This document shows, one piece after another, positions 8,361 through 44,616 of a stretch of DNA of 64,000 nt. The stretch spans positions 13,433 through 77,432 of the forward strand of contig CATZCM010000003.1 of the NCBI GenBank assembly GCA_958417225.1. The letters run 5' to 3'. The stretch's first letter is position 1. Every line of letters starts with the position of its first letter. The notes below the pieces were generated by a model, which searched no databases, was not told where the DNA came from, and was given only the letters and a program-made list of their open reading frames with translations. The stretch is from an uncultured Eubacteriales bacterium. GTDB taxonomy: Bacteria > Bacillota > Clostridia > Oscillospirales > Acutalibacteraceae. A program made the translations under genes and the position numbers.

Positions 8361-8843
8361 TTATTCAATTTTCAATCCTTTCACCCAATTCATAAGATCC
8401 TCACTCTTAATATCATACCTAAACACTTTCCCCTTCAACAATTTTGCTCCTTTGCAACTCGGAGAAAGTTTTTCATTTGTTTTTCCCATGCCACTTCCGC
8501 CGGAGGTAGCAAATGGAACAATAACCTTCCCATTAAAATCGCAACTTTCCAAAAACGTATTAACAATGGTAGGCGCAACATACCACCATATTGGGAATCC
8601 AATAAACACTGTATCATACTCACTAGCATTAGAAAGTGTTTGTGCAATTTCTGGACGAAACTGCAAATTTTCCATCTCAATTGAACTGCGGCTTTTTTTA
8701 TTAGTCCAATCAAGATCCGCATCAGTATACAAAATCTTAGGTTTAATCTCAAATAAATCCGCATTTATGGTTTCTGCTAAACGTTTAGCGACGTTCTTCG
8801 TCACTCCAGTTGCTGAAAAATACGCTACAAGTTTCTTATTCAT
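8361..8843 (-). CDS. Flavodoxin-like protein
   Basis: MNKKLVAYFSATGVTKNVAKRLAE... has flavodoxin fold motifs. Start moved to ATG 8843 because GGAGGG lies 6 nt upstream. Confidence 0.8.
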   Translation of the reverse strand: MNKKLVAYFSATGVTKNVAKRLAETINADLFEIKPKILYTDADLDWTNKKSRSSIEMENLQFRPEIAQTLSNASEYDTVFIGFPIWWYVAPTIVNTFLESCDFNGKVIVPFATSGGSGMGKTNEKLSPSCKGAKLLKGKVFRYDIKSEDLMNWVKGLKIE

Positions 8844-8970
8844 ATATTTCCCTCCATCACTCACAAATTAACACATATTAAAAAAATATCTACTGTTATC
8901 CACATGGCACCATGTAAAACCTTGTTACTTTTTCAAATTATGCGCCAATACATGATGACACAATATATTA

Positions 8971-10134
8971 TTAGTAAGCTTCCTGTAAAATAGTCAAAAT
9001 TTCTTGTTTTGTCATTTTTTTGTATCCGCCACCAACTTCAGTCGAATTTGCAATCTTAGGAAGCATTTCTTCTGTAGCACCGATATCACGTAACCTAGTA
9101 GGAAGTTCCATCTTTTTTATAAATTCGTCAAGTTTTTCAATGCCCATAAGAGCTGCTTCATACTTGGGCATTGAATCAGTATCAACATCCCACATTTTTT
9201 TTGCAAAACGGGCAAACTTATCCCACCCAAACTTATATATATGCTTGTAATATGGAACAGACAAAACTGCAAGCCCCACTCCATGTGCGCAATTTGTATA
9301 TGCACTAAGCTGATGCTCAATCATATGAACTTGCCAATCCTGTCTCTTGGAAAGCCCCGTAATTTGATTAAGTGCCATAGTTGAGCACCACATGATATTA
9401 CTTTTAATTTCATAATTTCTAGGATTTCGCAAAGCAATTTCCGTACTGTGCCGTAATGATTGAAAAACACCTTCAATAATATAATCTGTTGTATTGTCAT
9501 CAAATCCAGTAAAATATTGCTCCATCAGATGCGACATCGCATCAAAAATTCCGCTCACCATCTGAAGTTTCGGAACTCCAAAGGTATAATTTGGGTTAAG
9601 AATTGAAAATTTAGGGTTCACTTCAGGAGGGAAAACTCTACCACATTTTATCATTTCATCCTCATTGGTAATTACTGAACCACCGTTCATCTCTGAACCA
9701 GTTCCTGAAAGCGTCGGTATACATCCTACTGGAATAATCTCATTATCCACATCTTCTTTATTCACCCAGTAACGTTGCCACGGATCACCTTTACAATGTG
9801 CAGATACGGAAATAGCTTTTGCACAATCAATCACCGAACCGCCACCCACTGCCAAAATAAGATCTATATTATTTTCTCTTGCAAATTTCGCACATTCCAT
9901 CATTTGTTTGTATGTTGGATTAGGTTTGATTCCAGATAGTTCAATAATATTTTTCCCCGAATTTTTAAGAACTTCCGACACTTGATCATATACAACAATT
10001 TTTTTTATCGAACCTTCACCGTATAAAAAAAGAATATTGTCTCCATAATTCTTAAGTTCCTCCGACAAATGTGATAAAGCAGTTTTACCAAAATAAACTT
10101 TGGTAGGATTGTAATAATAAAAGTCTAAAATCAT
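8971..10134 (-). CDS. Iron-containing alcohol dehydrogenase (butanol dehydrogenase / YqhD-like)
   Basis: 387 aa with ...LAVGGGSVIDCAKAI... and the His-rich metal motifs of Fe-ADH family III. Confidence 0.85.
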   Translation of the reverse strand: MILDFYYYNPTKVYFGKTALSHLSEELKNYGDNILFLYGEGSIKKIVVYDQVSEVLKNSGKNIIELSGIKPNPTYKQMMECAKFARENNIDLILAVGGGSVIDCAKAISVSAHCKGDPWQRYWVNKEDVDNEIIPVGCIPTLSGTGSEMNGGSVITNEDEMIKCGRVFPPEVNPKFSILNPNYTFGVPKLQMVSGIFDAMSHLMEQYFTGFDDNTTDYIIEGVFQSLRHSTEIALRNPRNYEIKSNIMWCSTMALNQITGLSKRQDWQVHMIEHQLSAYTNCAHGVGLAVLSVPYYKHIYKFGWDKFARFAKKMWDVDTDSMPKYEAALMGIEKLDEFIKKMELPTRLRDIGATEEMLPKIANSTEVGGGYKKMTKQEILTILQEAY

Positions 10135-10334
10135 TCCAGTACACTCCCCTTTTGTTTAATATTTGAAGATAATCAATGTTATCAATCAAACCATACAATA
10201 AATTCATTTTTCAAAATAAATACTATATCTTAATTCATTTAGAAAATCCACCATATGCTAAAAAATATTTATTTAACACAAGTTACAAACACCATGTAGT
10301 TTTTCTCATCAAATCAAATAAATACAAATTACAT

Positions 10335-10368
10335 AAAAAAGCCCAGCAAACACGTATAGTTTGCTAGG
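10335..10368 (-). terminator. Rho-independent terminator after tRNA-Ser
   Basis: Minus strand CCTAGCAAAC-TATACGT-GTTTGCTGGG followed by CTTTTTT. Confidence 0.65.
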
Positions 10369-10375
10369 TTTCAAT

Positions 10376-10464
10376 TGGCGGAGAGGATGGGATTCGAACC
10401 CATGTGCGATTACTCGCAAACTGATTTCGAGTCAGCCCCGTTATGACCTCTTCGATACCTCTCC
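10376..10464 (-). tRNA. tRNA-Ser (anticodon CGA)
   Basis: Folded by hand. Acceptor GGAGAGG/CCTCTCC; anticodon stem GCTGA/TCAGT with loop CTCGAAA; long variable arm TGCGA-GTAA-TCGCA; T arm ATGGG-TTCGAAT-CCCAT; discriminator G; encoded CCA. Confidence 0.9.
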
Positions 10465-10667
10465 ATATACATTTCAGCCAGCAAATTTCATTACTTTTCC
10501 AAAACTCCAAAAGAGTCAAAAGCTATTAAACTTACTTTTTGAAAATCCGCATTCGTATAAACACAAATTTATCAGTTCACACGATAAATTGATTATAGCA
10601 CACAAAATTCATTCTGTCAACATTTTTTTATAAAGGCGACACCAAAACGGCATCGCCTTAAAAAATC

Positions 10668-11705
<1,038 letters not shown>

Positions 11706-11960
11706 TCATTTATATTGTTATTTTACCAAAGTAGATACTTTTTTTCAATGGTATAAATCACGTTGTTTTTAGTAAATTACAATTTTTTTTCATTAACTAT
11801 TAACTAATTTGTAAAGTCTACTCATTTAATTCAATTCATCAAAAATATCAATCACATTCATAAAATCTTACAAAGTAAAAAAAATCACAATTGTCATAAA
11901 TCATAGACAAGCCCAATATTATTTAGTATAGCAATAAAAAGTTTGAGAGGCGAAAATAAA

Positions 11961-12974
11961 ATGAAAAAAATAATATGTACAGCAATAGGTTTATTCATGT
12001 TCACTGGTCTCATGCCACTACTAATATGCGGAAAACGTCCTACTATATCAATTCCAGTTAACACAGCATCCGTATCGTTACCACCCGCTGTAAACACACC
12101 ACAACAAAGCAAATCATCTGAAGCACCATCATTTAAGATTCTTGACACATCCACATCTCAGATTATATCCATTCCTGATCGAGAATTCATGTACGGAGCA
12201 CTTCCTTACGAAGTTCCACCCACTTTTGAACCAGAAGCTTTAAAAGCACAGGCCATTGCTATATATACATACTTTAGCAGAGCCCGTAAAAAAGAACGTT
12301 GCAATTCCACTCAAGATCCTAACACTCCAGATTTTAAAGCTAATCTTTCAGCTGGAGAATTTTATCTTTCTAACGACCAACTTAAAAACAAGTTTGGCAG
12401 TTCATTTGATGAACATTTTGCTAAAATAAAGTCCATAGTAGACAGTGTGTTTGGTGAAGAGATTGTTTTTGAAGATGAACCCATCCTCGCAATGTATCAC
12501 GCAATATCAGGTGGATCAACTGAATGTTGTAAAGACGTTTTTGTAGAAGACATTCCATACTTAAAATCTGTACCAAGCCCTGGTGACATGGTAGCCCCTG
12601 GATACAAAAGTACAAAAGAATTCACTGATGACGAGTTCAAAGCTATCGCATCAAGCGTAACTGAAACACCTCTACCTGACGACAAAGGACAATGGATATC
12701 AAATATTAAATCAACCCCTTCAGGACATATAATTTCATTAAACCTCGGCACAAATGAAATTAGTGGCAACCAAATAAGATCGTTATTTTCTCTTAGATCA
12801 GGTAAATTCGATATATCATTTCAAGATGGAAAAGTCATATTCACGGTGTATGGGTACGGACATTGCGTCGGAATGAGCCAATATGGTGCCCAATATATGG
12901 CATTGCAGGGCTCTACTTATAAAGAAATAATTTCATGGTACTACCCTGGCACTGAAATAAAACATCAAATTTAA
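11961..12974 (+). CDS. spoIID: Stage II sporulation protein D (SpoIID/LytB domain)
   Basis: Signal/anchor MKKIICTAIGLFMF, then ...EALKAQAIAIYTY..., HAISGGSTE, GHCVGMSQYGA. Start set to ATG 11961; the track start is a TTG 18 nt upstream. Confidence 0.85.
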   Translation: MKKIICTAIGLFMFTGLMPLLICGKRPTISIPVNTASVSLPPAVNTPQQSKSSEAPSFKILDTSTSQIISIPDREFMYGALPYEVPPTFEPEALKAQAIAIYTYFSRARKKERCNSTQDPNTPDFKANLSAGEFYLSNDQLKNKFGSSFDEHFAKIKSIVDSVFGEEIVFEDEPILAMYHAISGGSTECCKDVFVEDIPYLKSVPSPGDMVAPGYKSTKEFTDDEFKAIASSVTETPLPDDKGQWISNIKSTPSGHIISLNLGTNEISGNQIRSLFSLRSGKFDISFQDGKVIFTVYGYGHCVGMSQYGAQYMALQGSTYKEIISWYYPGTEIKHQI

Positions 12975-31562: not shown

Positions 31563-32533
31563 TCATAAAATCACCTGATCCATGTCATAATACTTATACT
31601 CACCAAGATGACAACCAAAAATCACTTTATTCTCTGCATCTACCAGCTTTTTATACTCTGAATCAAGCAAACCATATAATACGGCCCATCGCCCGGTTTC
31701 CATTCACTGCTATATTCACGACTAATGATAGTCTTCGGCAAGTCATTTCCGCTCTCGTCCCTACCAAACTCAAACCACTTGTGCTCAATAATGCGAGTCC
31801 ACGGCGTTTCGCGGTCGGTACAGTTCACTGCGGCATTGCCCTGGAAGTTTGGCTTGTCCAAAATTTCCGTTTCAAAACGGACGGAACGATACTCCAGCGT
31901 ACCCAGCTTATAGTCAAAATAAGCATCTATCGGTCCTGTGTATACCCCTTATTAGCCAATGCATCCAACTCTACCTTATTCTCCAGATAGTCTGTGTTAA
32001 AACGAACTTCAATCCCATCCAGTAGATTAGCAATCATCTTGGTATAACCACCAACAGTAATACCCTGATAAAGAGCATTAAAGTAGTTGTTATCAAAAGT
32101 CAGACGAACTGGAAGTCTTTTGATGATAAAGGACGGCAGCTCTTTACAGTCGCATCCCCACTGCTTCTCAGTGTAGCCTTTGATGAGTTTCTCATAGATA
32201 TCACGACCCACAAGAGAAATAGCCTGTTCTTCAAGATTCTGCGGCTCGTGGGTGGATTTCTTTACGCTGCTTCTCAATCTTGGCCACAGGTGAGTTGGTA
32301 AACCGATTTAACTCAACAAACTGTGTAATATAATTCCAAACCTTTTTATTTGGTGTGGAAGATATGGGCACCGTATTTGTGGGTATTGATGCTCTCGACA
32401 TTTTCGGTGTAGATATTGCCAACAATGTTTGGGCGTTTGTCGACAACCAAAACAGATTTACAATGAGCCTTGGCTTCATGTGCAAAAATAGCTCCATAAA
32501 GTCCTGAGCCTACTACTAAATAATCATATATAT
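31563..32533 (-). pseudogene. glf: UDP-galactopyranose mutase gene, multiply disrupted
   Basis: Glf-like pieces in shifting frames: IYDYLVVGSGLYGAIFAHEA..HKYGAHIFHTK* / NKKVWNYITQFVELNRFTNSPVA-KIEKQRKEI / NLEEQAISLVGRDIYEKLIKGYTEKQWG.. / YTGPIDAYFDYKLGTLEYRSVRFETE..PWTRIIEHKWFEF..SREYSSEWKPGDGPYY / ..VIFGCHLGEYKYYDMDQVIL*. At least four frame changes (near 32346, 32255, 31945, 31680). About 35 codons appear deleted after NSPVA. ATA sits where the ATG is expected. Confidence 0.85.
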
Positions 32534-34905: not shown

Positions 34906-35561
34906 TTTATTGTTCTTTAAACACGTCTTCATACTGTCCGCAAATTTTATCCCATGTGTATTCTTCTGCCACACGCTTCTCTGCTCTCCAACCCATCTCT
35001 GCAATTTCATCTGCGCTCATTTGAACAGATAGCAAGGCCGCAATATTTGACCATCATCTGCCCAGAAATCTTCCAGTATTTCCGAATTGGTGCGGACCAC
35101 TTCGCTCTCATCCACTCATGTCCATCCGGATTCAAGTACACAGTACCGCCCAGTTTATGGATTTCTTTGTAGAAATGAGAGGCAAAGGGTCCGATGTGAC
35201 ATGTCATTATGTAGACAATCGGATGAGGAATATGATTTTTCTTAATATGCTCGCAGCACACTTTCAGTGCAGTAACATCATAATAAATTGCCTGTGCAGG
35301 CCCAATTTGAGGAACATCTATTTTGAAACAGTGGGCATTGTGGAGTTCAATTTCGTGGTCGTTGATCTTTGTCACGCCTCTAAACTCGTTCTCATCCATA
35401 CAGCCATCTCCATTGGCTTTACAGGCAACATGATATTTGATGTTCTCTTTATTCTGGTGATACTCCGTGAGCTTATAAACGAACGTTTCATAACCGCCAT
35501 ATGCTCCGAGGCTTTTTGCGCCCACAAGATATATATGCTGCACTTCTTTTTTTGAATTCAT
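34906..35561 (-). pseudogene. DUF1972/GT4 rhamnosyltransferase-like glycosyltransferase with a large internal deletion
   Basis: N-terminus MNSKKEVQHIYLVGAKSLGAYGGYETFVYKL...GTVYLNPDGHEWMRAKW...MMVKY is the DUF1972 half. The ORF stops at 35007. In another frame it is followed by only the last ~35 residues of a GT4 domain (..SADEIAEMGWRAEKRVAEEYTWDKICGQYEDVFKEQ*). From memory, homologs are roughly twice this length. Confidence 0.7.
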
Positions 35562-35885
35562 TCCTCTATTCCATCCTCACTACTCATGTTTTCTATTATC
35601 TCAATGCCATAAATCAGACCTCATTCCAGTTTCCAGCAACTTTTTATCCTCAGATTTTAATGCCTATTATCACTGCAGCACCGACAAGATACACATGCTG
35701 CACTTCTTTTTTTGAATCCATTCCTCTATTCAATCCTCATTCTTCGTGTTTTGTTTTATCTCATTACCGTAAACCAGACCTCAATCATAGTTCCAGCAGA
35801 TTTTATCCCCTAAATTTTCGTGTCTATTATCACTGCGGCTCCCACCAAAAATACGTGTTGCACTTCGTTTTACTGCCACATTTTT
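35517..35885 (-). repeat. Tandem ~157-160-bp repeat (2 full copies plus 1 partial), each carrying the RBS/5' end of the DUF1972 glycosyltransferase gene
   Basis: Copies start at 35517, 35674 and 35834 (tgcgcccacaagatatatatgctgcacttc / tgcagcaccgacaagatacacatgctgcacttc / tgcggctcccaccaaaaatacgtgttgcacttc). On the minus strand they encode MNSKKEVQHIYLVGA.., MDSKKEVQHVYLVGAAVIIGIKI*, and a degraded ..NEVQHVFLVGAAVIIDTKI*. Confidence 0.85.
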
Positions 35886-36491
35886 CTACCTCTGTATTCT
35901 TGCATCCTTTAGTCCCAGCCATTTCTGATCCTTATCGCTCAAACTTAATGGCGTCCCATCTTCCAAAAAGTAACCTTCAACACTTGCGTTACCCTTATAT
36001 TCACCTTTAAGTTCCGGCCACTCTACACCAATAATAGGATCATTCCAAGCTAGACCACTTTCATCACCGGGGTGATAAAAGTCTGTACACTTATAACAAA
36101 ACTCTGCAACATCGGACAAAACCAAGAACCCATGAGCAAAACCCTCTGGGATATAAAACTGTTTGTGATTTTCTTCAGACAGTTCAACCCCAAACCACTC
36201 ACCATAAGTTTTACTACTTTGCCTAAGATCAACGGCCACATCAAAAACACAACCTTTAATCACTCGAACCAATTTACCCTGTGGAAATTGTTTTTGAAAA
36301 TGCAATCCACGAAGCACACCTTTTGAGCTCATACTCTGATTATCCTGCACAAACACCATATCAAGACCAGCTTCGTGCATATCATTTTGGTTATACGTCT
36401 CAATAAAGTACCCACGATTATCATGATGGACAGTTGGTTCGATCACACAAAGCCCATCAATAGGGCATCTAGTTACTTTAATCTGTCCCAT
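35886..36491 (-). CDS. rfbC: dTDP-4-dehydrorhamnose 3,5-epimerase
   Basis: ..DNRGYFIETYN...GVLRGLHFQ....QGKLVRV..G.VFDVAVDLR..S.TYG.W... Confidence 0.9.
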   Translation of the reverse strand: MGQIKVTRCPIDGLCVIEPTVHHDNRGYFIETYNQNDMHEAGLDMVFVQDNQSMSSKGVLRGLHFQKQFPQGKLVRVIKGCVFDVAVDLRQSSKTYGEWFGVELSEENHKQFYIPEGFAHGFLVLSDVAEFCYKCTDFYHPGDESGLAWNDPIIGVEWPELKGEYKGNASVEGYFLEDGTPLSLSDKDQKWLGLKDARIQR

Positions 36492-37386
36492 AACGCACCT
36501 GCAATTCTTTCAAATATCGTCCCAGTGCATCCTGCCAAATCGGAAGCGGTGTAAAACCTGCCTCCACTAGTTTGCTCTTGTCCAGACGACTATTAAACGG
36601 ACGAACAGCCTTACTCTGACCATACTCTGTTGTAGTCACTGGCAACACTCTAGTGGTGTATCCCGCCTGATTGAATATTTCACGGGCAAAGTCGTACCAA
36701 CTAATGTATCCGCCCTCATTTGTAGCATGGAAATAACCATATTTATTTGATTCAGCCATGTCAACCAATAATCTTGCAAGGTCAAAAGTATACGTAGGCG
36801 TTCCAATCTGATCATTTACTACTTGGAGTGTCACATGATTTTTACCTGCATCAAGCATGGTTTTGATAAAATTATTTCCATTTTTGCCAAACACCCACGC
36901 AACACGCACAATGAAGTATTTTTCTAAATTTCTAGCAACTGCAAACTCCCCATCAAGTTTACTTTTACCATAAACATTTAGTGGATTGTAATCCTTGCAA
37001 TCTGGATCCCATGGTTTTGTACCATGTCCGTCAAAAACATAATCAGTTGAAATGTAAATCATTTTGCAGTCTAAACTCTTACATGCACTAGAAATATTCT
37101 CTGTACCATCAACATTGATTGCACGAACTTTCTCTAAATTTTCGATGTCCTCAGCAGCATCAACCGCAGTCCACGCCGCACAGTGAATAACCACATCTGG
37201 ACAAATTTTTTTAAGAGTCCACAAAACTGCAGCCCTGTTAGTAATATCCAACCTCTCATACTGATTTTGAAATGCATCACATTTTTCCGTTATATCAGAC
37301 CCGATTGCTTCATGCCCTCGTTTCAGAAGTTCATTCATCACATCATATCCCAGCTGTCCACCGGCTCCAGTTACAAAGATTTTCAT
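36478..37386 (-). CDS. rfbD: dTDP-4-dehydrorhamnose reductase
   Basis: MKIFVTGAGGQLG.., ..STDYVFDG.., YGKSKL. Lies between rfbB and rfbC. Confidence 0.9.
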   Translation of the reverse strand: MKIFVTGAGGQLGYDVMNELLKRGHEAIGSDITEKCDAFQNQYERLDITNRAAVLWTLKKICPDVVIHCAAWTAVDAAEDIENLEKVRAINVDGTENISSACKSLDCKMIYISTDYVFDGHGTKPWDPDCKDYNPLNVYGKSKLDGEFAVARNLEKYFIVRVAWVFGKNGNNFIKTMLDAGKNHVTLQVVNDQIGTPTYTFDLARLLVDMAESNKYGYFHATNEGGYISWYDFAREIFNQAGYTTRVLPVTTTEYGQSKAVRPFNSRLDKSKLVEAGFTPLPIWQDALGRYLKELQVRYGTD

Positions 37387-37397
37387 CTTATCCTCCT

Positions 37398-38417
37398 TTA
37401 GCGGTTGCTGTACATTTTATCGTAGTAGTTCTGATACTCGCCACTAATGATGGTTTCCCACCACTTACGATTGTCGAGATACCACTGAATGGTCTTCTTG
37501 ATACCGTCCTCGAACTTGATTTCTGGAAACCAGCCCATTTCATTGTGAATCTTGGTCGGGTCGATGGCATAACGCATATCATGCCCTTTACGATCCCTCA
37601 CATGTGTAATCAGCGATTCCGGTTTATCAAGCTCCTTACAGATGATTTTCACGATTTCAATATTCTGCTTTTCATTGTGGCCACCGACATTATAAACTTC
37701 ACCAACACGTCCCTTATGTATAATCAAGTCAATAGCCTTACAATGGTCTTCAACATACAGCCAATCACGAACATTCAATCCTTCACCATAAACCGGTAAT
37801 GGCTTATTCGCCAGGGCATTTACAATCATCAGTGGAATCAACTTTTCCGGAAAATGATATGGTCCATAATTATTTGAGCAACGACTGATCGTTACCGGCA
37901 ATCCGTATGTCCTGTGATATGCAAGCACTAACAAATCTGCACCGGCCTTTGAACTGCTATACGGTGAACTCGTATGAATTGGAGTACTTTCTGTAAAAAA
38001 TAAGTCTTTTCGATCAAGCGGCAAATCACCGTAAACTTCATCCGTAGAGACCTGATGATAGCGTTTTATGCCATACTTTCGACAAGCATCCATTAACGTT
38101 ACCGTTCCGATTATATTGGTCTGAAGAAAAATCCCTGGATCTTCAATTGATCTATCAACATGACTTTCCGCAGCAAAATTCACTACAACATCGGGATGTT
38201 CCTCCTCAAACAACTTATTTACTGTATCACGATCACATATATCAGCTTTTACAAAACGAAAGTTTGGATTACTCATCACTGGTTCTAAAGTAGATAAATT
38301 TCCTGCATATGTAAGCTTGTCCAAACATACTACACGGTCATTCGGGTAATTTTTCAGCATGTAAAACACAAAATTCGATCCGATGAATCCTGCTCCTCCT
38401 GTTACAATAAATGTCAC
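37398..38417 (-). CDS. rfbB: dTDP-glucose 4,6-dehydratase
   Basis: ..IVTGGAGFIGSNFV.., ..STDEVYG.., YSSSKA. Confidence 0.92.
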   Translation of the reverse strand: MTFIVTGGAGFIGSNFVFYMLKNYPNDRVVCLDKLTYAGNLSTLEPVMSNPNFRFVKADICDRDTVNKLFEEEHPDVVVNFAAESHVDRSIEDPGIFLQTNIIGTVTLMDACRKYGIKRYHQVSTDEVYGDLPLDRKDLFFTESTPIHTSSPYSSSKAGADLLVLAYHRTYGLPVTISRCSNNYGPYHFPEKLIPLMIVNALANKPLPVYGEGLNVRDWLYVEDHCKAIDLIIHKGRVGEVYNVGGHNEKQNIEIVKIICKELDKPESLITHVRDRKGHDMRYAIDPTKIHNEMGWFPEIKFEDGIKKTIQWYLDNRKWWETIISGEYQNYYDKMYSNR

Positions 38418-38421
38418 TTTC

Positions 38422-39342
38422 TCACCCCCCTCTCCAGATTCCTAATTCATTAGTTTTATCTATATACTTACCGTCCAAAACATCCTTAATATACTGACCA
38501 TACTGATTTTTTTTCATAGTTTCATACACTTTGTACAATTCAGATTTACTAATCCAGCCATTCGAGTACGCAATCTCCTCCAAACACGCTATCTTACGGT
38601 GTTGATGAGTTTCGATTGTCTTGACAAAATTGGTCGCTTCTACTAAACTTTCATGAGTCCCCGTATCAAGCCATGTAAAACCTTGTCCTAGAAGTTCAAC
38701 ATTTAATTCACAATTCTCAAGGTAAATACGATTCAAATCTGTTATCTCAAATTCACCACGAGCTGACGGTTTTAATTTTTTTGCATACTCCACTACACGA
38801 TTATCGTAAAAATACAAACCAGTCACACAATAATTACTTTTTGGAAAGTTCGGTTTCTCTTCGATTGATATCGCTTTCCCAGCACTGTCGAACTCCACAA
38901 TACCAAATCGTTCTGGATCATCCACATAGTATCCAAACACAGTTGCTCCCTTACCCGATTCAGAATTACAAACAGCTGCATTTAAGCGTTTATTCAAACC
39001 ATTTCCCGCAAATATGTTGTCACCAAGAATCATTGCTACCGTGTCTCTCCCAATGAAATCTGCACCTATCACGAAAGCTTGTGCCAATCCATCCGGTGAC
39101 GGTTGAACTGCGTATTGAAGATTCACTCCAAATTGACTTCCATTTCCCAACAACTCCTTAAACCTTGGTGTATCTTGCGGTGTAGAAATTATAAGTATAT
39201 CTCGTATTCCCGCATTCATAAGAACAGACATTGGATAATATATCATTGGCTTATCATATATCGGTAAAAGTTGCTTACTAGTTACTCTAGTTAATGGATA
39301 CAACCTTGTCCCTGATCCTCCTGCTAATATGATACCCTTCAT
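38422..39342 (-). CDS. rfbA: Glucose-1-phosphate thymidylyltransferase
   Basis: [37 protein letters not shown]... Start set to ATG 39342. Confidence 0.92.
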
Positions 39343-39375
39343 TAATCTTGTCACCTCACACGAAATCCTCACCAA

Positions 39376-39405
39376 TTTATAAAATCATCTTTATAACACA
39401 ATCAA
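39376..39405 (-). promoter_or_regulatory. Weak/moderate promoter candidate directly upstream of rfbA
   Basis: Minus strand TTGATT (39405-39400), 18 nt, TATAAA (39381-39376). The -35 overlaps the left inverted repeat. Confidence 0.35.
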
Positions 39406-39430
39406 GTCGCAAATCATAATCTTTTGCGAC
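39404..39430. repeat. Left copy of a perfect 27-nt inverted repeat (itself a hairpin, 8-10 bp arms)
   Basis: aagtcgcaaatcataatcttttgcgac is the exact reverse complement of 39800-39826. The arms GTCGCAAA/TTTGCGAC are palindromic, but the 9-nt centre (tcataatct vs agattatga) shows the two copies are inverted, not direct. Confidence 0.9.
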
Positions 39431-39477
39431 TTATGGTTTTAACTTCGCATACAGTGTGGGGTTGGATAATTTTCTTG

Positions 39478-39517
39478 CGAAAAATCTGACGGCAAATGCT
39501 ATAAAATTGCCGTCAGA
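39478..39517 (-). terminator. Rho-independent terminator (minus strand) inside the IR-flanked segment
   Basis: 11-bp perfect stem TCTGACGGCAA / TTGCCGTCAGA (39485-39495 / 39507-39517), followed on the minus strand by TTTTTCGC. Confidence 0.65.
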
Positions 39518-39759
39518 AAATTCTGGAAATTAAAATTGAGTTATGAACGTTCAAACATAAAAAGAATGCGTCCTTGAGCCAAAAACACAGATTTTTTACA
39601 TAAAACACATTAATTTGAAAAGTGATCAAAAAAATTAACATAAATCTTTTCAAAAAGAGTCGATAAAACTCCTTGTAAATTTCATTTTGATTGTGATACG
39701 ATGCTGTGATATGTGATTTTAACTATTGTGCCGAAAAAAAACTTTTTTTTGTATTTTAC

Positions 39760-39788
39760 TTGACTTATCCTTTTTATGAATATATAAT
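39760..39788 (+). promoter_or_regulatory. Near-consensus sigma-A promoter pointing rightwards (away from rfbA)
   Basis: TTGACT (39760-39765), 17-nt spacer, TATAAT (39783-39788). The predicted start, about 39795, is only a few nt before the right inverted repeat. Confidence 0.7.
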
Positions 39789-39799
39789 ATTAATTGTGT

Positions 39800-39826
39800 G
39801 TCGCAAAAGATTATGATTTGCGACTT
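39800..39826. repeat. Right copy of the 27-nt inverted repeat
   Basis: gtcgcaaaagattatgatttgcgactt is the reverse complement of 39404-39430. Confidence 0.9.
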
Positions 39827-39831
39827 TTTTT
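39800..39831 (+). terminator. Plus-strand intrinsic terminator formed by the right repeat hairpin plus T7
   Basis: Hairpin GTCGCAAA-agattatga-TTTGCGAC is followed immediately by TTTTTTT (39825-39831). The left copy lacks such a T run in the corresponding orientation. Confidence 0.6.
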
Positions 39832-39839
39832 ATTTCACC

Positions 39840-39883
39840 TTAAAGCCCCGTTATATGCGGTTTTGCATATAACGGGGCTTTAA
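39840..39883. other. Perfect 19-bp stem / 6-nt loop hairpin
   Basis: ttaaagccccgttatatgc-ggtttt-gcatataacggggctttaa. No clean U-tract on either side. Function unclear; it may be a bidirectional transcription barrier. Confidence 0.6.
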
Positions 39884-39910
39884 AATTAAATTACGTATAC
39901 TTTCAATTTC

Positions 39911-39976: not shown

Positions 39977-40228
39977 TTAAGATAATCGATTACTCAAACC
40001 ACAATAAATAAGTGGAATATTTTCTTCTCCACGAATATTTTTCATATGTTTACAAAACTGGCAATCATTTTTCATCGCCTTTAGTTCTTCTGAAGAATAG
40101 TCATTTCCCAGTGAATCTTTCAAAAATTTCGCATCAAAGCTATCGCAATAGCAAGAACCTAGTGGATCAATTAACTTATAAACGCCACCATTTACACTCA
40201 CTTCGTCATTATTTTCAACTTTCAACAT
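39977..40228 (-). CDS. 83-aa Cys-rich peptide with a double-glycine-type leader (candidate exported peptide/bacteriocin precursor)
   Basis: ATG 40228 is preceded by GGAGAGGG (5-6 nt spacing), 18 nt after the ABC gene stop. Sequence is MLKVENNDEVSVNGG/VYKLIDPLGSCYCDSFDAKFLKDSLGNDYSSEELKAMKNDCQFCKHMKNIRGEENIPLIYCGLSNRLS. It is co-oriented with a C39-peptidase ABC exporter. I recognise no family. Confidence 0.6.
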   Translation of the reverse strand: MLKVENNDEVSVNGGVYKLIDPLGSCYCDSFDAKFLKDSLGNDYSSEELKAMKNDCQFCKHMKNIRGEENIPLIYCGLSNRLS

Positions 40229-40246: not shown

Positions 40247-42442
40247 TCACGAATAGTTATCAGTACGTTGACGTTCCACAAGCTCTGCAAAATATCCCTT
40301 TTTATCTATTAGCTCTTGATACGTACCATCCTCAATAATCTTTCCTTTATCCAAAACCACAATTCTATCACAATGTTTAATAGTAGACAGTCTATGAGCA
40401 ATAACAATCCTCGTACTTTTCAAGCTATCAAGGGAATCAGACACTTGTTTTTGAGTAATATTATCAAGTGCAGATGTTGCTTCATCAAACATAATTACCC
40501 TAGGTTTAGGAGCTATAGCCCGAGCAATCATCATTCTTTGCTTTTGACCTCCAGAAATTCCTCCACCACCCTCACTTATGACAGTATGCATTCCCATCGG
40601 CATATTTCGTATATCGTCATCAAAGCCTGCCATACGAGCAGCCTCCCAAGCATCGTTAAGGGTAAGCCATGGTGCACAAATCACAATATTAGCAAAAATG
40701 TCCCCCGAAAACAATTTTCCATCTTGCATAACTGTTCCGATCTTTTGCCTCAAAGATCTTAAATCTAGAGATTTTATATCTTTTCCATCATAATAAACCG
40801 CACCACTATTTGGAGTCTCAAATCCCAATAAAATTCTCATCAAGGTTGATTTACCACAACCTGTCTTTCCAACTATAGCAATGTATTCTCCTGGTTTTAT
40901 CTTCAAACTTAAGTCATCAAGTATCAAAGGTCCATTCTCACTATACTTAAATGAGATATTATTTAGTTCAATATTCCCAGAAAGTTTTGTAAGTATTTTT
41001 TTATTCACATTAACTTCAGGTTGGGCATCTAAAATAGGGGACACCAATTCAAGTGTTGGTTTAATTTTAGCCATAGTTGTAGCTATACTTGCCAAAGACA
41101 TAATTGCACTACTAATTTGTCCGTACGCAGTGTTAAATGCAACATAGTCCGCTACATCAATTTTCGATTGAATTGCAAAATAATACAATACTATCGTACC
41201 AATTGAACTCACAATAGTACTAAAAATCGGCCAGATTTTAACTATAAAAGCTGGATTATACTGTAACTGTGCTGAATCCTTGTAAACATTGGACCACTTT
41301 GCAAAAGCACGTTTTTCAGCTCCGGCCAACTTTATTTTTTGAATTCCGCTAAACAAAGAGAATACCAACCCTTGGAGTTTATTTTCCACCTCATTATTTT
41401 TTCGTTGCAAATTCATCGAAATATACACATAAATCGTTGACATCACCAACTGAACCAAAACAATAATTATAGCTGGAATCACCAACATTCGCCCATACGC
41501 TAACATTGATCCCAAATAAACAAATGAGCATAAAGCTGCCAATCCATGTTCTAGCACAGCACTTGTAAGCATCGAACAGAGCGAATTCAAACTAAAAGTT
41601 CTATTAGCAAGTTCTCCCGCATTGTAATCTTTGAAAAAAGTAGCTGGCAGTGACATCAATCTACTCATAGCCGCACACGAAACTGCCAAACCCATTTTAG
41701 TTTGGAGCCTAGTCCGTACCAACGCACTCGTAATTGAAATCAAATACTGAGAAATTTCAACACCAATAAAAAATGTCAGCACTGGTGCTAAAAAGTTAAG
41801 ACCACTTTCACCAAGAGGAACTACCTTTTGATAAATCGTCTTATTCACCATTGGCACCAAAAGACCTATTAAATTACCAAAAATCATTGTAGCAACAATC
41901 ATTAACAAATCGGCTTTTGACAAAGCACTAAGTGAGTACCACAATAGATCCTTGATTTTCAGAGGTTTAAGTGGAAGCGGTTTATAAAAGCAAATAGCCT
42001 CCGGTTTAATTAAATTCATATTTTTAGAACTGAGCGAAACATGCTTGCCTGTTTTATAATCATAATATCTATAATGACCAATGCCATACGGTAAAAGAGC
42101 TATAACTTCTCCAGAAGCAGTCCTCCCAATCATGGGTCCAATTGCGTCTTTCCACCACTTACCATTTAGCTTAACATTTCTATACATGATTCCTGTGGGT
42201 TTAAGCATATATTCTAGCTGATCACTAAACCCTTCTACATCATTTGGTAGCTCAATTATTTTCGATTTATAGTATTTTAATATTTCCTCAATCGCATTTT
42301 GAGTTTGAACTCTTTCATTATTAACTGTAGCTGATGAATGTTGTTTTCCAAGTATTACCGAAGATAAGTCTATAACGGCATCCTCAAACTCCTGACTATC
42401 TTTTTCGATTCTGGTTTTTATTTGCTCATCGAACCAACCCAT
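40247..42442 (-). CDS. ABC transporter permease/ATPase without peptidase domain (NHLP-type bacteriocin exporter, second subunit-like)
   Basis: 731 aa. A ~160-aa non-peptidase N-terminal domain, six-TM ABC exporter core, Walker A GKTGCGKST, signature ISGGQKQR, Walker B IMFDEATSALD. Paired with the C39-ABC gene, as in the TIGR03796/TIGR03797 pairs I recall. Confidence 0.75.
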   Translation of the reverse strand: MGWFDEQIKTRIEKDSQEFEDAVIDLSSVILGKQHSSATVNNERVQTQNAIEEILKYYKSKIIELPNDVEGFSDQLEYMLKPTGIMYRNVKLNGKWWKDAIGPMIGRTASGEVIALLPYGIGHYRYYDYKTGKHVSLSSKNMNLIKPEAICFYKPLPLKPLKIKDLLWYSLSALSKADLLMIVATMIFGNLIGLLVPMVNKTIYQKVVPLGESGLNFLAPVLTFFIGVEISQYLISITSALVRTRLQTKMGLAVSCAAMSRLMSLPATFFKDYNAGELANRTFSLNSLCSMLTSAVLEHGLAALCSFVYLGSMLAYGRMLVIPAIIIVLVQLVMSTIYVYISMNLQRKNNEVENKLQGLVFSLFSGIQKIKLAGAEKRAFAKWSNVYKDSAQLQYNPAFIVKIWPIFSTIVSSIGTIVLYYFAIQSKIDVADYVAFNTAYGQISSAIMSLASIATTMAKIKPTLELVSPILDAQPEVNVNKKILTKLSGNIELNNISFKYSENGPLILDDLSLKIKPGEYIAIVGKTGCGKSTLMRILLGFETPNSGAVYYDGKDIKSLDLRSLRQKIGTVMQDGKLFSGDIFANIVICAPWLTLNDAWEAARMAGFDDDIRNMPMGMHTVISEGGGGISGGQKQRMMIARAIAPKPRVIMFDEATSALDNITQKQVSDSLDSLKSTRIVIAHRLSTIKHCDRIVVLDKGKIIEDGTYQELIDKKGYFAELVERQRTDNYS

Positions 42443-42459
42443 TTATAACACCTCACTCT

Positions 42460-44616
42460 CTATTCATTTGAAACTAGTTTAGTGTATAAACCGCCATTTT
42501 TGTAGAGTTGTTCATGAGTACCTCGTTCCACAATTTTGCCATGGTCCATCACTATAATCTCATCGCAATCTCTAATCGTAGACAATCTATGTGCAACTAT
42601 TACACATGAAATGCCTCTATTTTTTATGGCCTTCATCACTTCAAACTCAGTTTTTGCGTCAAGCGCCGATGTTGCTTCATCCATAATAATTATAGACGGA
42701 TCCTGTGCTAGCACTCTTGCAATTTCAAAACGCTGTATCTGTCCTCCAGAGAAATTCTTGCCATTTTCCAACACCTTTTCACTATATCCATCAGAACGTT
42801 TAACTATATCATCATGAATTTGGGCATCTCGAGCTGCAAGTATAACTTCAAAATCTTCAATTGATTCATCCCACATTTTTATATTATCGGACACCGAATC
42901 TTCAAACATGATTTTATCCTGATCAACAACCGCCAAAGACCCTGCAAATACTTCTCTTCGTATATCCTCTCTTTTTTTTCCATCAAACGTAATACTCCCT
43001 GACCATGGTTGATAAAGGCCTGAGATTAACTTTGCAAGAGTCGATTTGCCACACCCTGATGCACCTACAAAAGCCACCCTTGATCCTGGTTTCAATTTAA
43101 GATTAAAATTCTCAATAAGCGGTCCGGAAAGCCTATTATATCCAAACGTAACATCTTTCATTTCAAGCTCACCGCTTAATTTAGAGCATTCCTCATTTTC
43201 AATGTTACTATCTTCGTCAAATTCAACATCTGTTTCATAGCTCATCACATCTTCTATTCTTTCCATAGATGTTCTCATTTCGATGAAGCTTGTCCCCAAT
43301 GAAATAAACTTATTAATTGGTGAATTAAACAGGGACAAATAAGAAGTAAACTGCATTAAAAGACCTACTGTAAAGTTTCCCTTCATTATAAAGTAAACTC
43401 CGGCACCTGTTACAGCTATGCTTGTTAATGTTGTAATAATAGTTTGAACCGAACCAATATACTGGGCTATTTTCGCAGCTCTTACCTGCGCAGAATTAAA
43501 AGACGCGAAAAAACCTGACCAACGCTCAAAAAATCCATTTTCAGCACCAGATGATTTCACAGTTTCTATCATGTCTATACCCGACATAGTACTCGAGGCC
43601 AATTTCCCACTATCCCTCATCATACCTCTTGCAACATTTTGCTGCAAAAGCGCACTATATCTTGCTATTAAAATATTTATAAGAAGTGTAGAAAGCCCAA
43701 TAATCGTAAGAATCCACTGATTACTGATCATCATCCATAAATACAAAATCAACAGGAACACGTCTATTACTACCGGTGACAATTGATCAATAAGCGTATT
43801 CGCTATATTAGCGTTAGTACTCTGTCTACTAGCTATATCACCAGCCAATCTTTGTGAAAAGAACTCCATCGGAAGTCTAAGTACATGCCACATAAATGTA
43901 GTACTTCCGATAATTGCAACTTTACCTTGTATTTTCAACCTGTAAACCGTTTCTATTGCCATTTGTACTATCTGTATTAATACAAATAAACTAATCGCAA
44001 CCAAAAATGGAACTATCCATTCGGGGTTTTTTGCATTTACTCCCAACAGTCGGTCATAGAAAACTCTACCAAAAGCTGGCTGAATTATTTCTATAGCGCC
44101 TGCAATAACACTTGTTAGCATAACAAAAATTATTGGAATTAACGTGCCTTTCAATCTCTTGCGAACGAACTTTAATACACTCTTTGGTTTGCCTCCCTTT
44201 TGGAATGACTCCCCCGGTGAAAAACACAATGCAACCCCTGTAAACGACTCATCAAATTCCCTCATACTAACGGCAACCTTGCCACGAGCAGGGTCATTTA
44301 TATATACTCTATCTTTCGAAAATCCAGTTAAAACAACAAAATGATTAAAATTCCAGTGAATAATCGCTGGCAGACTCAATTCCTTAGCTTCTTCAACTCC
44401 ACATTTATAAGCATTCGCATTTAACCCATATGCCCTAGCCGCCAACATCATATTTTTACAGTTGCTACCGTCACGGGATACGCCACAATCGGTTCTAACT
44501 TGCTCAAGTGGAAGCCATTTTTCATAATAGGCAAGTATCATTGCAATACAGGCTGCTCCGCACTCGAGGGCTTCCATTTGAATAACAACTGGAACCTTTG
44601 TTTTTTTATTTTTCAT
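42460..44616 (-). CDS. C39-peptidase-domain ABC exporter (bacteriocin-processing/export type)
   Basis: 718 aa. N-terminus QMEALECGAACIAMILAYY...HWNFNHFVVLTGF...NDPA carries the C39 Cys/His motifs. Then TMD, GASGCGKST, FSGGQIQR, IIMDEATSALD. Confidence 0.85.
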   Translation of the reverse strand: MKNKKTKVPVVIQMEALECGAACIAMILAYYEKWLPLEQVRTDCGVSRDGSNCKNMMLAARAYGLNANAYKCGVEEAKELSLPAIIHWNFNHFVVLTGFSKDRVYINDPARGKVAVSMREFDESFTGVALCFSPGESFQKGGKPKSVLKFVRKRLKGTLIPIIFVMLTSVIAGAIEIIQPAFGRVFYDRLLGVNAKNPEWIVPFLVAISLFVLIQIVQMAIETVYRLKIQGKVAIIGSTTFMWHVLRLPMEFFSQRLAGDIASRQSTNANIANTLIDQLSPVVIDVFLLILYLWMMISNQWILTIIGLSTLLINILIARYSALLQQNVARGMMRDSGKLASSTMSGIDMIETVKSSGAENGFFERWSGFFASFNSAQVRAAKIAQYIGSVQTIITTLTSIAVTGAGVYFIMKGNFTVGLLMQFTSYLSLFNSPINKFISLGTSFIEMRTSMERIEDVMSYETDVEFDEDSNIENEECSKLSGELEMKDVTFGYNRLSGPLIENFNLKLKPGSRVAFVGASGCGKSTLAKLISGLYQPWSGSITFDGKKREDIRREVFAGSLAVVDQDKIMFEDSVSDNIKMWDESIEDFEVILAARDAQIHDDIVKRSDGYSEKVLENGKNFSGGQIQRFEIARVLAQDPSIIIMDEATSALDAKTEFEVMKAIKNRGISCVIVAHRLSTIRDCDEIIVMDHGKIVERGTHEQLYKNGGLYTKLVSNE

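Follow-up and report, generated by a model that had tools for sequence, protein, structure and literature searches.

Natural inversion of a predicted promoter segment at the head of a dTDP-L-rhamnose and glycan locus in an uncultured human-gut bacterium of the class Clostridia

Background

Phase-variable surface polysaccharides are central to the evasion of phages and of the immune system in gut Bacteroides, while gut Firmicutes are far less known in this respect. In Bacteroides fragilis and B. thetaiotaomicron the invertible promoters of the capsule loci are turned by Mpi and related recombinases, and in Escherichia coli the element fimS is inverted by FimB and FimE. Within the class Clostridia the switches cwpV, flgB and cmrRST of Clostridioides difficile depend on RecV, a tyrosine recombinase that is encoded far from the switch (PMC2784873, PMC5386303, PMC5903667, PMC8844915). 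Many invertible elements (invertons) of Clostridia-class gut bacteria are of unknown function (PMC5903667), and the median reported for Clostridia-like Firmicutes_A in a defined community is about 3 per genome (PMC11892184). Here we analyzed a stretch of 64,000 nucleotides (the window; contig CATZCM010000003.1) from an uncultured human-gut bacterium of this class. It contains a 369-bp segment between inverted repeats, located in front of the dTDP-L-rhamnose synthesis genes rfbA-rfbB-rfbD-rfbC, which an earlier reading of the letters alone (the sequence-only reading) had proposed to be an invertible promoter.

In nature the 369-bp segment, bounded by inverted 27-bp sites, alternates between two states. 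We regard the element as most likely a phase-variation switch that carries its promoter inside the segment. This inverton is apparently undescribed, and its mechanism is of a known kind. In the literature, including the supplement of PMC11892184, no inverton of an rfb or rhamnose locus and no report of the switch repeat was found.

Results and discussion

Orientation of the segment in natural populations

Contigs carrying the locus were gathered by exact-protein look-ups of RfbA, of an 83-amino-acid (aa) peptide encoded on the opposite side of the segment and of close variants. They derived from many independent human-gut metagenomes and metagenome-assembled genomes (MAGs). Both arms of the repeat were located on each contig and the interior was oriented. 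In 30 independent samples both junctions were readable between the same constant flanks. The segment (39431–39799) had the orientation of the window in 18 of these assemblies and was present as the exact reverse complement in the remaining 12. Inverted assemblies came, for example, from the samples ERR7528823, ERR13302691, ERR13990071 and ERR11478424, and assemblies in the orientation of the window from SRR29134015, ERR7366362 and ERR11504117. The inversion that had been postulated from the single sequence was thus borne out, with identical interiors found both ways.

Four interior haplotypes, i.e. the 369-nt type of the window and types of 370, 358 and 357 nt, were each seen in both orientations, which therefore points to repeated flipping. 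Three pairs of contigs allowed a closer comparison. L018 and L020 differed only by the inversion, their flanks being identical at 848/848 positions on the left and at 1855/1855 on the right. Exact inversions likewise distinguished L122 from L116 (left flank 5525/5527, right flank 3500/3500) and L124 from L117 (5512/5515 and 3142/3142, respectively). Since flanks that are more than 99.9% identical enclose segments of opposite orientation, inversion must be much faster than point mutation.

Four further contigs (L019, L028, L029 and L110) ended 0–18 nt from an arm. Such ends are expected of a branching assembly graph and suggest that both orientations were present in these samples; low coverage could explain them as well.

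Structure of the repeats

The arms at 39404–39430 (proximal to rfbA) and 39800–39826 (distal) form a perfect 27-nt inverted repeat that is 100% complementary, with 369 nt in between. The list of open reading frames (ORFs) agrees with the sequence-only reading, which took the enclosed DNA as non-coding; the longest ORF within the segment is at most 46 aa, and the intergenic region that houses the switch measures 634 nt. When the entire window was scanned for perfect inverted repeats (15 nt or more, spacing 30–3000 nt), only the pair of arms and a single 15-mer came up. The 27-mer occurs just twice in the window, even with up to 3 mismatches tolerated, and had 0 matches in 100 shuffles.

The repeat was also sought outside the window. 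An exact scan for a 25-mer of the inverted repeat yielded 0 matches in 185,579 species-representative genomes, and a degenerate scan for the arm in a metagenome collection retrieved two contigs only, both from the switch locus itself. The possibility that the 27-mer is a scattered element of the repetitive extragenic palindromic (REP) or terminator-family kind, which would have spoken for a common hairpin, was rejected on these grounds. An Rfam search of the region gave sub-threshold noise only and no known RNA family.

A feature that is absent from the sequence-only reading is the internal dyad symmetry of each arm. The full symmetric site at the proximal arm spans 39404–39432 and reads AAGTCGCAAA-TCATAATCT-TTTGCGACTT; this arm is conserved in 30/30 related assemblies. 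Aligned as direct repeats the two arms are 81% identical. As the arms are dyad-symmetric, the direction of each site is set by the 9-nt centre alone. Inverted arms of 10 bp around a 9-nt asymmetric spacer add up to 29 bp (10+9+10), an odd length with the axis of symmetry on a base, and the spacers of both arms match each other in all 30 assemblies. We refer to the proximal and distal arms as putative recombination sites.

The layout bears on the class of the enzyme. Core sites of tyrosine recombinases, such as loxP, FRT and dif, consist of inverted arms that flank a short asymmetric spacer, and inversion follows if two such sites are placed in inverted orientation. The sites of the switch share these features, including a direction-setting asymmetric spacer that is identical in the partner sites. 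Their spacer of 9 nt is longer than the 6–8 nt of loxP, FRT and dif, and their putative binding arms measure 10 nt. Serine invertases, in contrast, use a dyad of even length with a central 2-bp crossover, which the odd 29-bp site fits poorly. Given this core-site layout, the flipping enzyme is probably a tyrosine recombinase, which would be encoded elsewhere.

In a lineage comprising L005, L006, L007 and L027 both spacers have T replaced by C, and the distal arm alone has G replaced by A in its inner half. These are three changes in 54 arm nucleotides, compared to three bases that differ from L001 across ~9 kb of flanks. A spacer change common to both arms fits the need for matching crossover regions, although it represents a single event. 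In 4/4 assemblies with the G to A change the segment had the orientation of the window, taken as OFF, which may be chance or may indicate an impaired switch. As all four carriers share one orientation, the variant did not permit mapping of the crossover. In the OFF transcript of the promoter the G to A change leads to a G·U pair and the hairpin is kept.

A RecA-type homologous recombination between two 27-bp hairpin or terminator sequences, leading to rare evolutionary inversions in place of a programmed switch, would agree with two observations: the segment neither contains nor adjoins a recombinase gene, and either arm by itself could plausibly fold into a hairpin as RNA. However, at least 4 independent inversions would be needed, four haplotypes being found in both orientations, and the flips separate strains whose ~9 kb flanks differ by 0–3 bases. 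Furthermore, 27 bp are a poor substrate for homologous recombination, and inverted arms, an asymmetric spacer and a spacer variant found in both arms correspond to the layout of a recombinase core site. We consider such an origin improbable when compared to site-specific inversion.

Search for a recombinase

Pfam scans of ~38 ORFs of the window detected no tyrosine or serine recombinase and no Resolvase domain, in line with the sequence-only reading, which had noted that no recombinase gene is present. Invertible elements of the Hin/Gin type have their recombinase in or beside the segment; here neither an ORF larger than 46 aa inside the segment nor a Resolvase-domain protein among the scanned ORFs was found.

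When the search was extended by 10 kb past each end of the window, one Xer-like gene was encountered on the left side and none on the right. It encodes a tyrosine recombinase of 307 aa (L112:19218–20141, minus strand) and lies ~7 kb past the left end of the window, at a distance of ~46 kb to the switch. Its neighbours are a DUF6483 gene on one side and a gene of unknown function on the other. The gene is present on 42 contigs. Its scores were below the NCBIfam cut-offs for both XerC (202 bits, cut-off 335) and XerD (186 bits, cut-off 330). Over the window and the 10-kb extensions, about 50 kb around the switch, no other recombinase was found. Nothing ties the Xer-like gene to the switch, and it is a candidate only.

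Promoter, terminators and leader

The near-consensus promoter that had been predicted within the segment, pointing away from rfbA, was confirmed at the level of the sequence. TTGACT-17-TATAAT (39760–39788, plus strand) matches the consensus of a sigma-70-type promoter at 11 of 12 positions and faces outwards, with a predicted start at ~39795. A tract of A8/T8 (39734–39750) precedes it. The promoter is the top match in more than 20 kb; nothing above 10/12 was found in the adjacent 20-kb glycan cluster, and no match above 9/12 between the switch and a long hairpin at 39832–39891. Both hexamers and the A8/T8 tract are invariant in 6/6 haplotypes. The middle of the segment varies among the haplotypes by an insertion or deletion of 11 nt and several single-nucleotide polymorphisms.

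In the 12 inverted assemblies (L004 and 11 others) the promoter points at rfbA. It is then located ~93 nt from the rfbA start codon, close to the ~100 nt that the sequence-only reading had anticipated, and would be transcribed through the proximal arm and a constant leader of 61 nt (39343–39403, minus strand). The leader contains the ribosome-binding site AGGTGA (39352–39357) and is identical across all assemblies but for one polymorphism. In this orientation the hairpin of the proximal arm is followed by TTGATTGTG and no T run; the GATTGTG that had been named as the continuation of the repeat on the rfbA side was verified.

As drawn in the window, the predicted start sits 5 nt before the distal arm. 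RNA of the plus strand folds this arm into a hairpin with an 8-bp stem and a 9-nt loop (-9.4 kcal/mol), and T7 follows at 39825–39831, so that a predicted OFF-state terminator spans 39800–39831. Folding verified this geometry, which had been part of the original proposal, and terminator function would follow from it. The terminator scan did not flag the hairpin; its limit for loops is 8 nt. The T run after the distal arm is T6 or T7 in all strains. Together the hairpin and T7 should act as a modest terminator that ends the transcript of the promoter after ~35 nt in the window orientation.

Two further hairpins are located inside the segment on the minus strand. The rfbA-sense terminator that had already been noticed was verified. 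It is a strong predicted intrinsic terminator at 39480–39517, formed by a hairpin (39485–39517) with an 11-bp stem (-20.4 kcal/mol, z = -6.6) and U5. A weaker terminator-like element lies at 39557–39589, with its hairpin at 39567–39589 (-11.4 kcal/mol, z = -3.3). Both face rfbA in the window orientation only. Outside the switch, the long hairpin at 39832–39891 (-35.3 kcal/mol, z = -8.6) would close the upstream exporter and peptide operon in both orientations and thereby insulate the operon from the switch.

The two internal hairpins raise the question whether the element is mainly an invertible terminator as in cwpV of C. difficile, with transcription starting outside of the segment and the internal promoter match being incidental. 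The strong terminator and the weaker one, which oppose transcription into rfbA in one orientation only, are what would be expected in that case. However, the only near-consensus promoter of the region lies inside the segment, at its end and facing outwards, and is invariant in all haplotypes. Whichever way the segment lies, the upstream operon should already end at the outer hairpin of -35 kcal/mol, and between this hairpin and the switch no promoter exceeds 9/12. We consequently judge a pure terminator switch quite unlikely and favour an invertible promoter.

Proposed mechanism

According to the model of an invertible promoter, a recombinase acting from elsewhere would flip the segment at the two 27-bp sites. 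In the ON state, which we assign to the inverted orientation, the promoter would face rfbA and give rise to an mRNA with a ~93-nt leader that starts at the repeat hairpin. This mRNA would comprise rfbABDC and probably also the downstream glycan genes, which vary among strains. In the window orientation, taken as OFF, the promoter would point away and its transcript would stop ~35 nt on, at the repeat hairpin and T7, while the two internal terminators and the long hairpin after the upstream operon would block read-through into rfbA. As a result, cells of one population would differ in making a rhamnose-containing surface glycan.

A more far-reaching suggestion concerns the arms, which might double as RNA structures: as terminator stem together with the fixed T7 flank in the OFF state, and as a 5'-terminal hairpin that stabilises the rfb mRNA in the ON state. 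Other gut Lachnospiraceae may have glycan loci of the same design, with hairpin arms and insulating terminators, on which a Xer-like recombinase would act. We put this forward tentatively and with more doubt than belief.

Several points weigh against the proposed switch. The evidence for the two orientations was obtained between samples and from assembled contigs instead of reads. No recombinase is linked to the switch, and the Xer-like gene could encode a housekeeping Xer enzyme. Transcription from the promoter is a prediction, and so is termination at a hairpin of 8 bp with a 9-nt loop and only -9.4 kcal/mol. The reach of the transcript beyond rfbC is deduced from the absence of predicted terminators. 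Moreover, a full OFF state would be unexpected if dTDP-rhamnose is essential in the host; the cells may possess a second rml locus or a constitutive promoter of low strength.

That the two orientations are mere assembly artefacts of the inverted repeat is extremely unlikely: an inverted repeat may mislead an assembler, and contig ends do fall at the arms in several cases, but the 27-nt repeat is shorter than the k-mers given in the contig names (k141, k119) and also below the k=31 of Logan assemblies and the length of typical reads, so that junctions are read directly, and both orientations, with exact and reproducible junctions, were recovered from SPAdes-style, MEGAHIT-style and Logan contigs of different studies.

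Comparison with known invertible systems

The sequence-only reading had likened the locus to the invertons of Bacteroides capsule loci and to the switches of C. difficile. This holds for the repeat-flanked segment, the internal promoter and the adjoining polysaccharide operon. It does not hold for cwpV in so far as the promoter of that system is located outside the invertible region. What is expected of an inverton in general, an outward-facing internal promoter that reaches the neighbouring gene in one of the orientations, is found here at the level of the sequence.

The capsule loci of B. fragilis and B. thetaiotaomicron resemble our locus in having an intergenic segment of a few hundred bp within inverted repeats and an outward-facing promoter from which, in the ON state, a long operon for surface polysaccharide is transcribed, as is predicted for the present case. 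A recombinase acting in trans (here presumed), the human-gut setting and strain-variable glycan genes downstream are common to both as well. The host, in contrast, belongs to another phylum, being a low-GC, spore-forming member of the Bacillota; the window has a GC content of ~35% and contains a SpoIID gene. Sites of the Mpi type carry an ACGT-containing motif, whereas the switch repeat is unrelated and lacks this motif. Mpi is a serine recombinase, while the layout found here suggests a tyrosine recombinase. Furthermore, the first regulated genes in Bacteroides encode the UpxY/UpxZ regulators and here they are dTDP-rhamnose precursor genes, and only a single such switch is present in the 64 kb.

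With the RecV-dependent switches cwpV, flgB and cmrRST the locus shares a Clostridia-class host, a segment in the range of 150–400 bp and repeats of ~20–30 bp. Orientation-dependent intrinsic termination and a distant recombinase, both predicted here, are further likenesses to cwpV, which was compared by layout with no claim of sequence similarity (PMC2784873, PMC5903667). The arrangement of the parts differs. In cwpV the promoter is outside of the switch and the terminator arises from pairing of a repeat with internal sequence; our segment itself holds the only strong promoter, a repeat arm would serve as the terminator stem and T7 lies in the fixed flank, so that the orientation-dependent terminators are shared only in part.

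The element fimS of E. coli is similar as an invertible element of ~300 bp that contains a promoter only and sets a surface structure ON or OFF. It is inverted by tyrosine-recombinase chemistry, which for our locus is suggested by the layout of the sites. The recombinase genes of fimS adjoin the switch and its sites are 9-bp repeats with flanking half-sites, whereas here no such gene is adjacent and the sites are 29-bp dyads resembling lox and dif.

Neighbouring genes and the glycan locus

The first genes downstream of the switch, rfbA-rfbB-rfbD-rfbC (35886–39342, minus strand), were assigned to dTDP-L-rhamnose synthesis by their Pfam domains. The rfbA gene itself occupies 38422–39342 on the minus strand and encodes an NTP_transferase domain (E=2e-76). 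After rfbC, ~16 kb of glycosyltransferase and sugar-modification genes follow on the same strand. Between rfbC and the glycan genes behind it no terminator and no promoter above chance was predicted; the regulated transcript therefore probably extends past rfbC into these genes.

The genes behind rfbC were wholly different among strains with more than 99% identical rfb genes (L001–L010 and L116–L125, about 9460–12900). Variants included a DUF1972 glycosyltransferase with an epimerase, a heptose-type set of GHMP-kinase, HAD and SIS genes, Alg13/14-like genes, DUF6625 with GT4, and a DegT aminotransferase. A conserved switch thus heads a hypervariable glycan locus, and variation of this kind is typically seen where diversifying selection acts on surface glycans.

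Some of these genes appear to be damaged. The DUF1972 glycosyltransferase comprises 184 aa in the window, L116 and L122 compared to 411 aa in L001, L004 and L005, and the shorter gene is probably truncated. A unit of 160 nt is repeated 2.2 times at 80% identity (35521–35871 and 35007–35561, minus strand) and duplicates the 5' end of the DUF1972 glycosyltransferase gene together with its leader. Fragments similar to UDP-galactopyranose mutase at 31927–32497 look broken as well.

Upstream of the switch the minus strand encodes a STAS protein, a 206-aa protein, two ABC exporters, one of them with a C39 peptidase domain, and the 83-aa peptide, which is rich in cysteine. The exporter genes (40247–44616, minus strand) directly precede the peptide gene (39977–40228, minus strand). 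The peptide had no Pfam match and starts with MLKVENNDEVSVNGG, which resembles a double-glycine leader. Together these genes resemble an operon for the export of a bacteriocin-like peptide, the gene of which comes last.

Related loci in other species

For comparison, at least 80 rfbA loci of other species with a total of 776 kb were inspected among the matches listed, a limit that applies to all results of this comparison. Neither a homologous repeat nor shared synteny upstream of rfbA was found in them. Among the matches listed, the closest RfbA had 88% identity and came from a Lachnospira MAG. Compared to MAGs of Lachnospira, Agathobacter and Mediterraneibacter, the identities were 85–90% for RfbA and RfbB, 75–81% for RfbC and 64–69% for RfbD. 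By these identities, the GC content of ~35% and the SpoIID gene, the host, apparently an uncultured species, would probably be placed in the Lachnospiraceae.

Only one comparable repeat was present in these loci. The contig L032 of a Mediterraneibacter sp. MAG carries an unrelated perfect 27-nt inverted repeat (1475–1501 and 1899–1925), the hairpin arms of which read TTCGTAGAGTA-CAT-TACTCTACGAA. The enclosed DNA measures 397 bp, and 24 nt separate the repeat from a downstream gene for a 184-aa protein, behind which ugd and rfbABDC are located. On the minus strand an outward promoter (TTGACA-17-TAAACT) runs into the left arm and a T-rich tail, which is the same design as in the switch of the window. 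The three contigs that could be read (L032, L126 and L127) had one and the same orientation. Additionally, a perfect inverted repeat of 20 nt is located just past rfbC in L034 of Lachnospira intestinalis (8731–8750 and 8888–8907, 137 nt apart); it might be no more than a long hairpin, or it might form another invertible element of small size.

Conclusions

The switch represents a clean inverton, validated at the population level, in an uncultured human-gut bacterium of the class Clostridia. The understanding of how such switches work is not changed by it. Modest points of interest are the recombination site that would double as the OFF terminator stem, the additional terminators within the segment and the place in front of a hypervariable glycan locus. 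With the exact pair of junctions, ON/OFF ratios can be scored in metagenomes that are already available and set against variables of host, diet or phage, and the compact recombination site is a handle for finding the matching recombinase. As it precedes the dTDP-rhamnose genes and a glycan locus that is hypervariable among strains, the switch would gate the supply of the precursor and, probably, the glycan itself.

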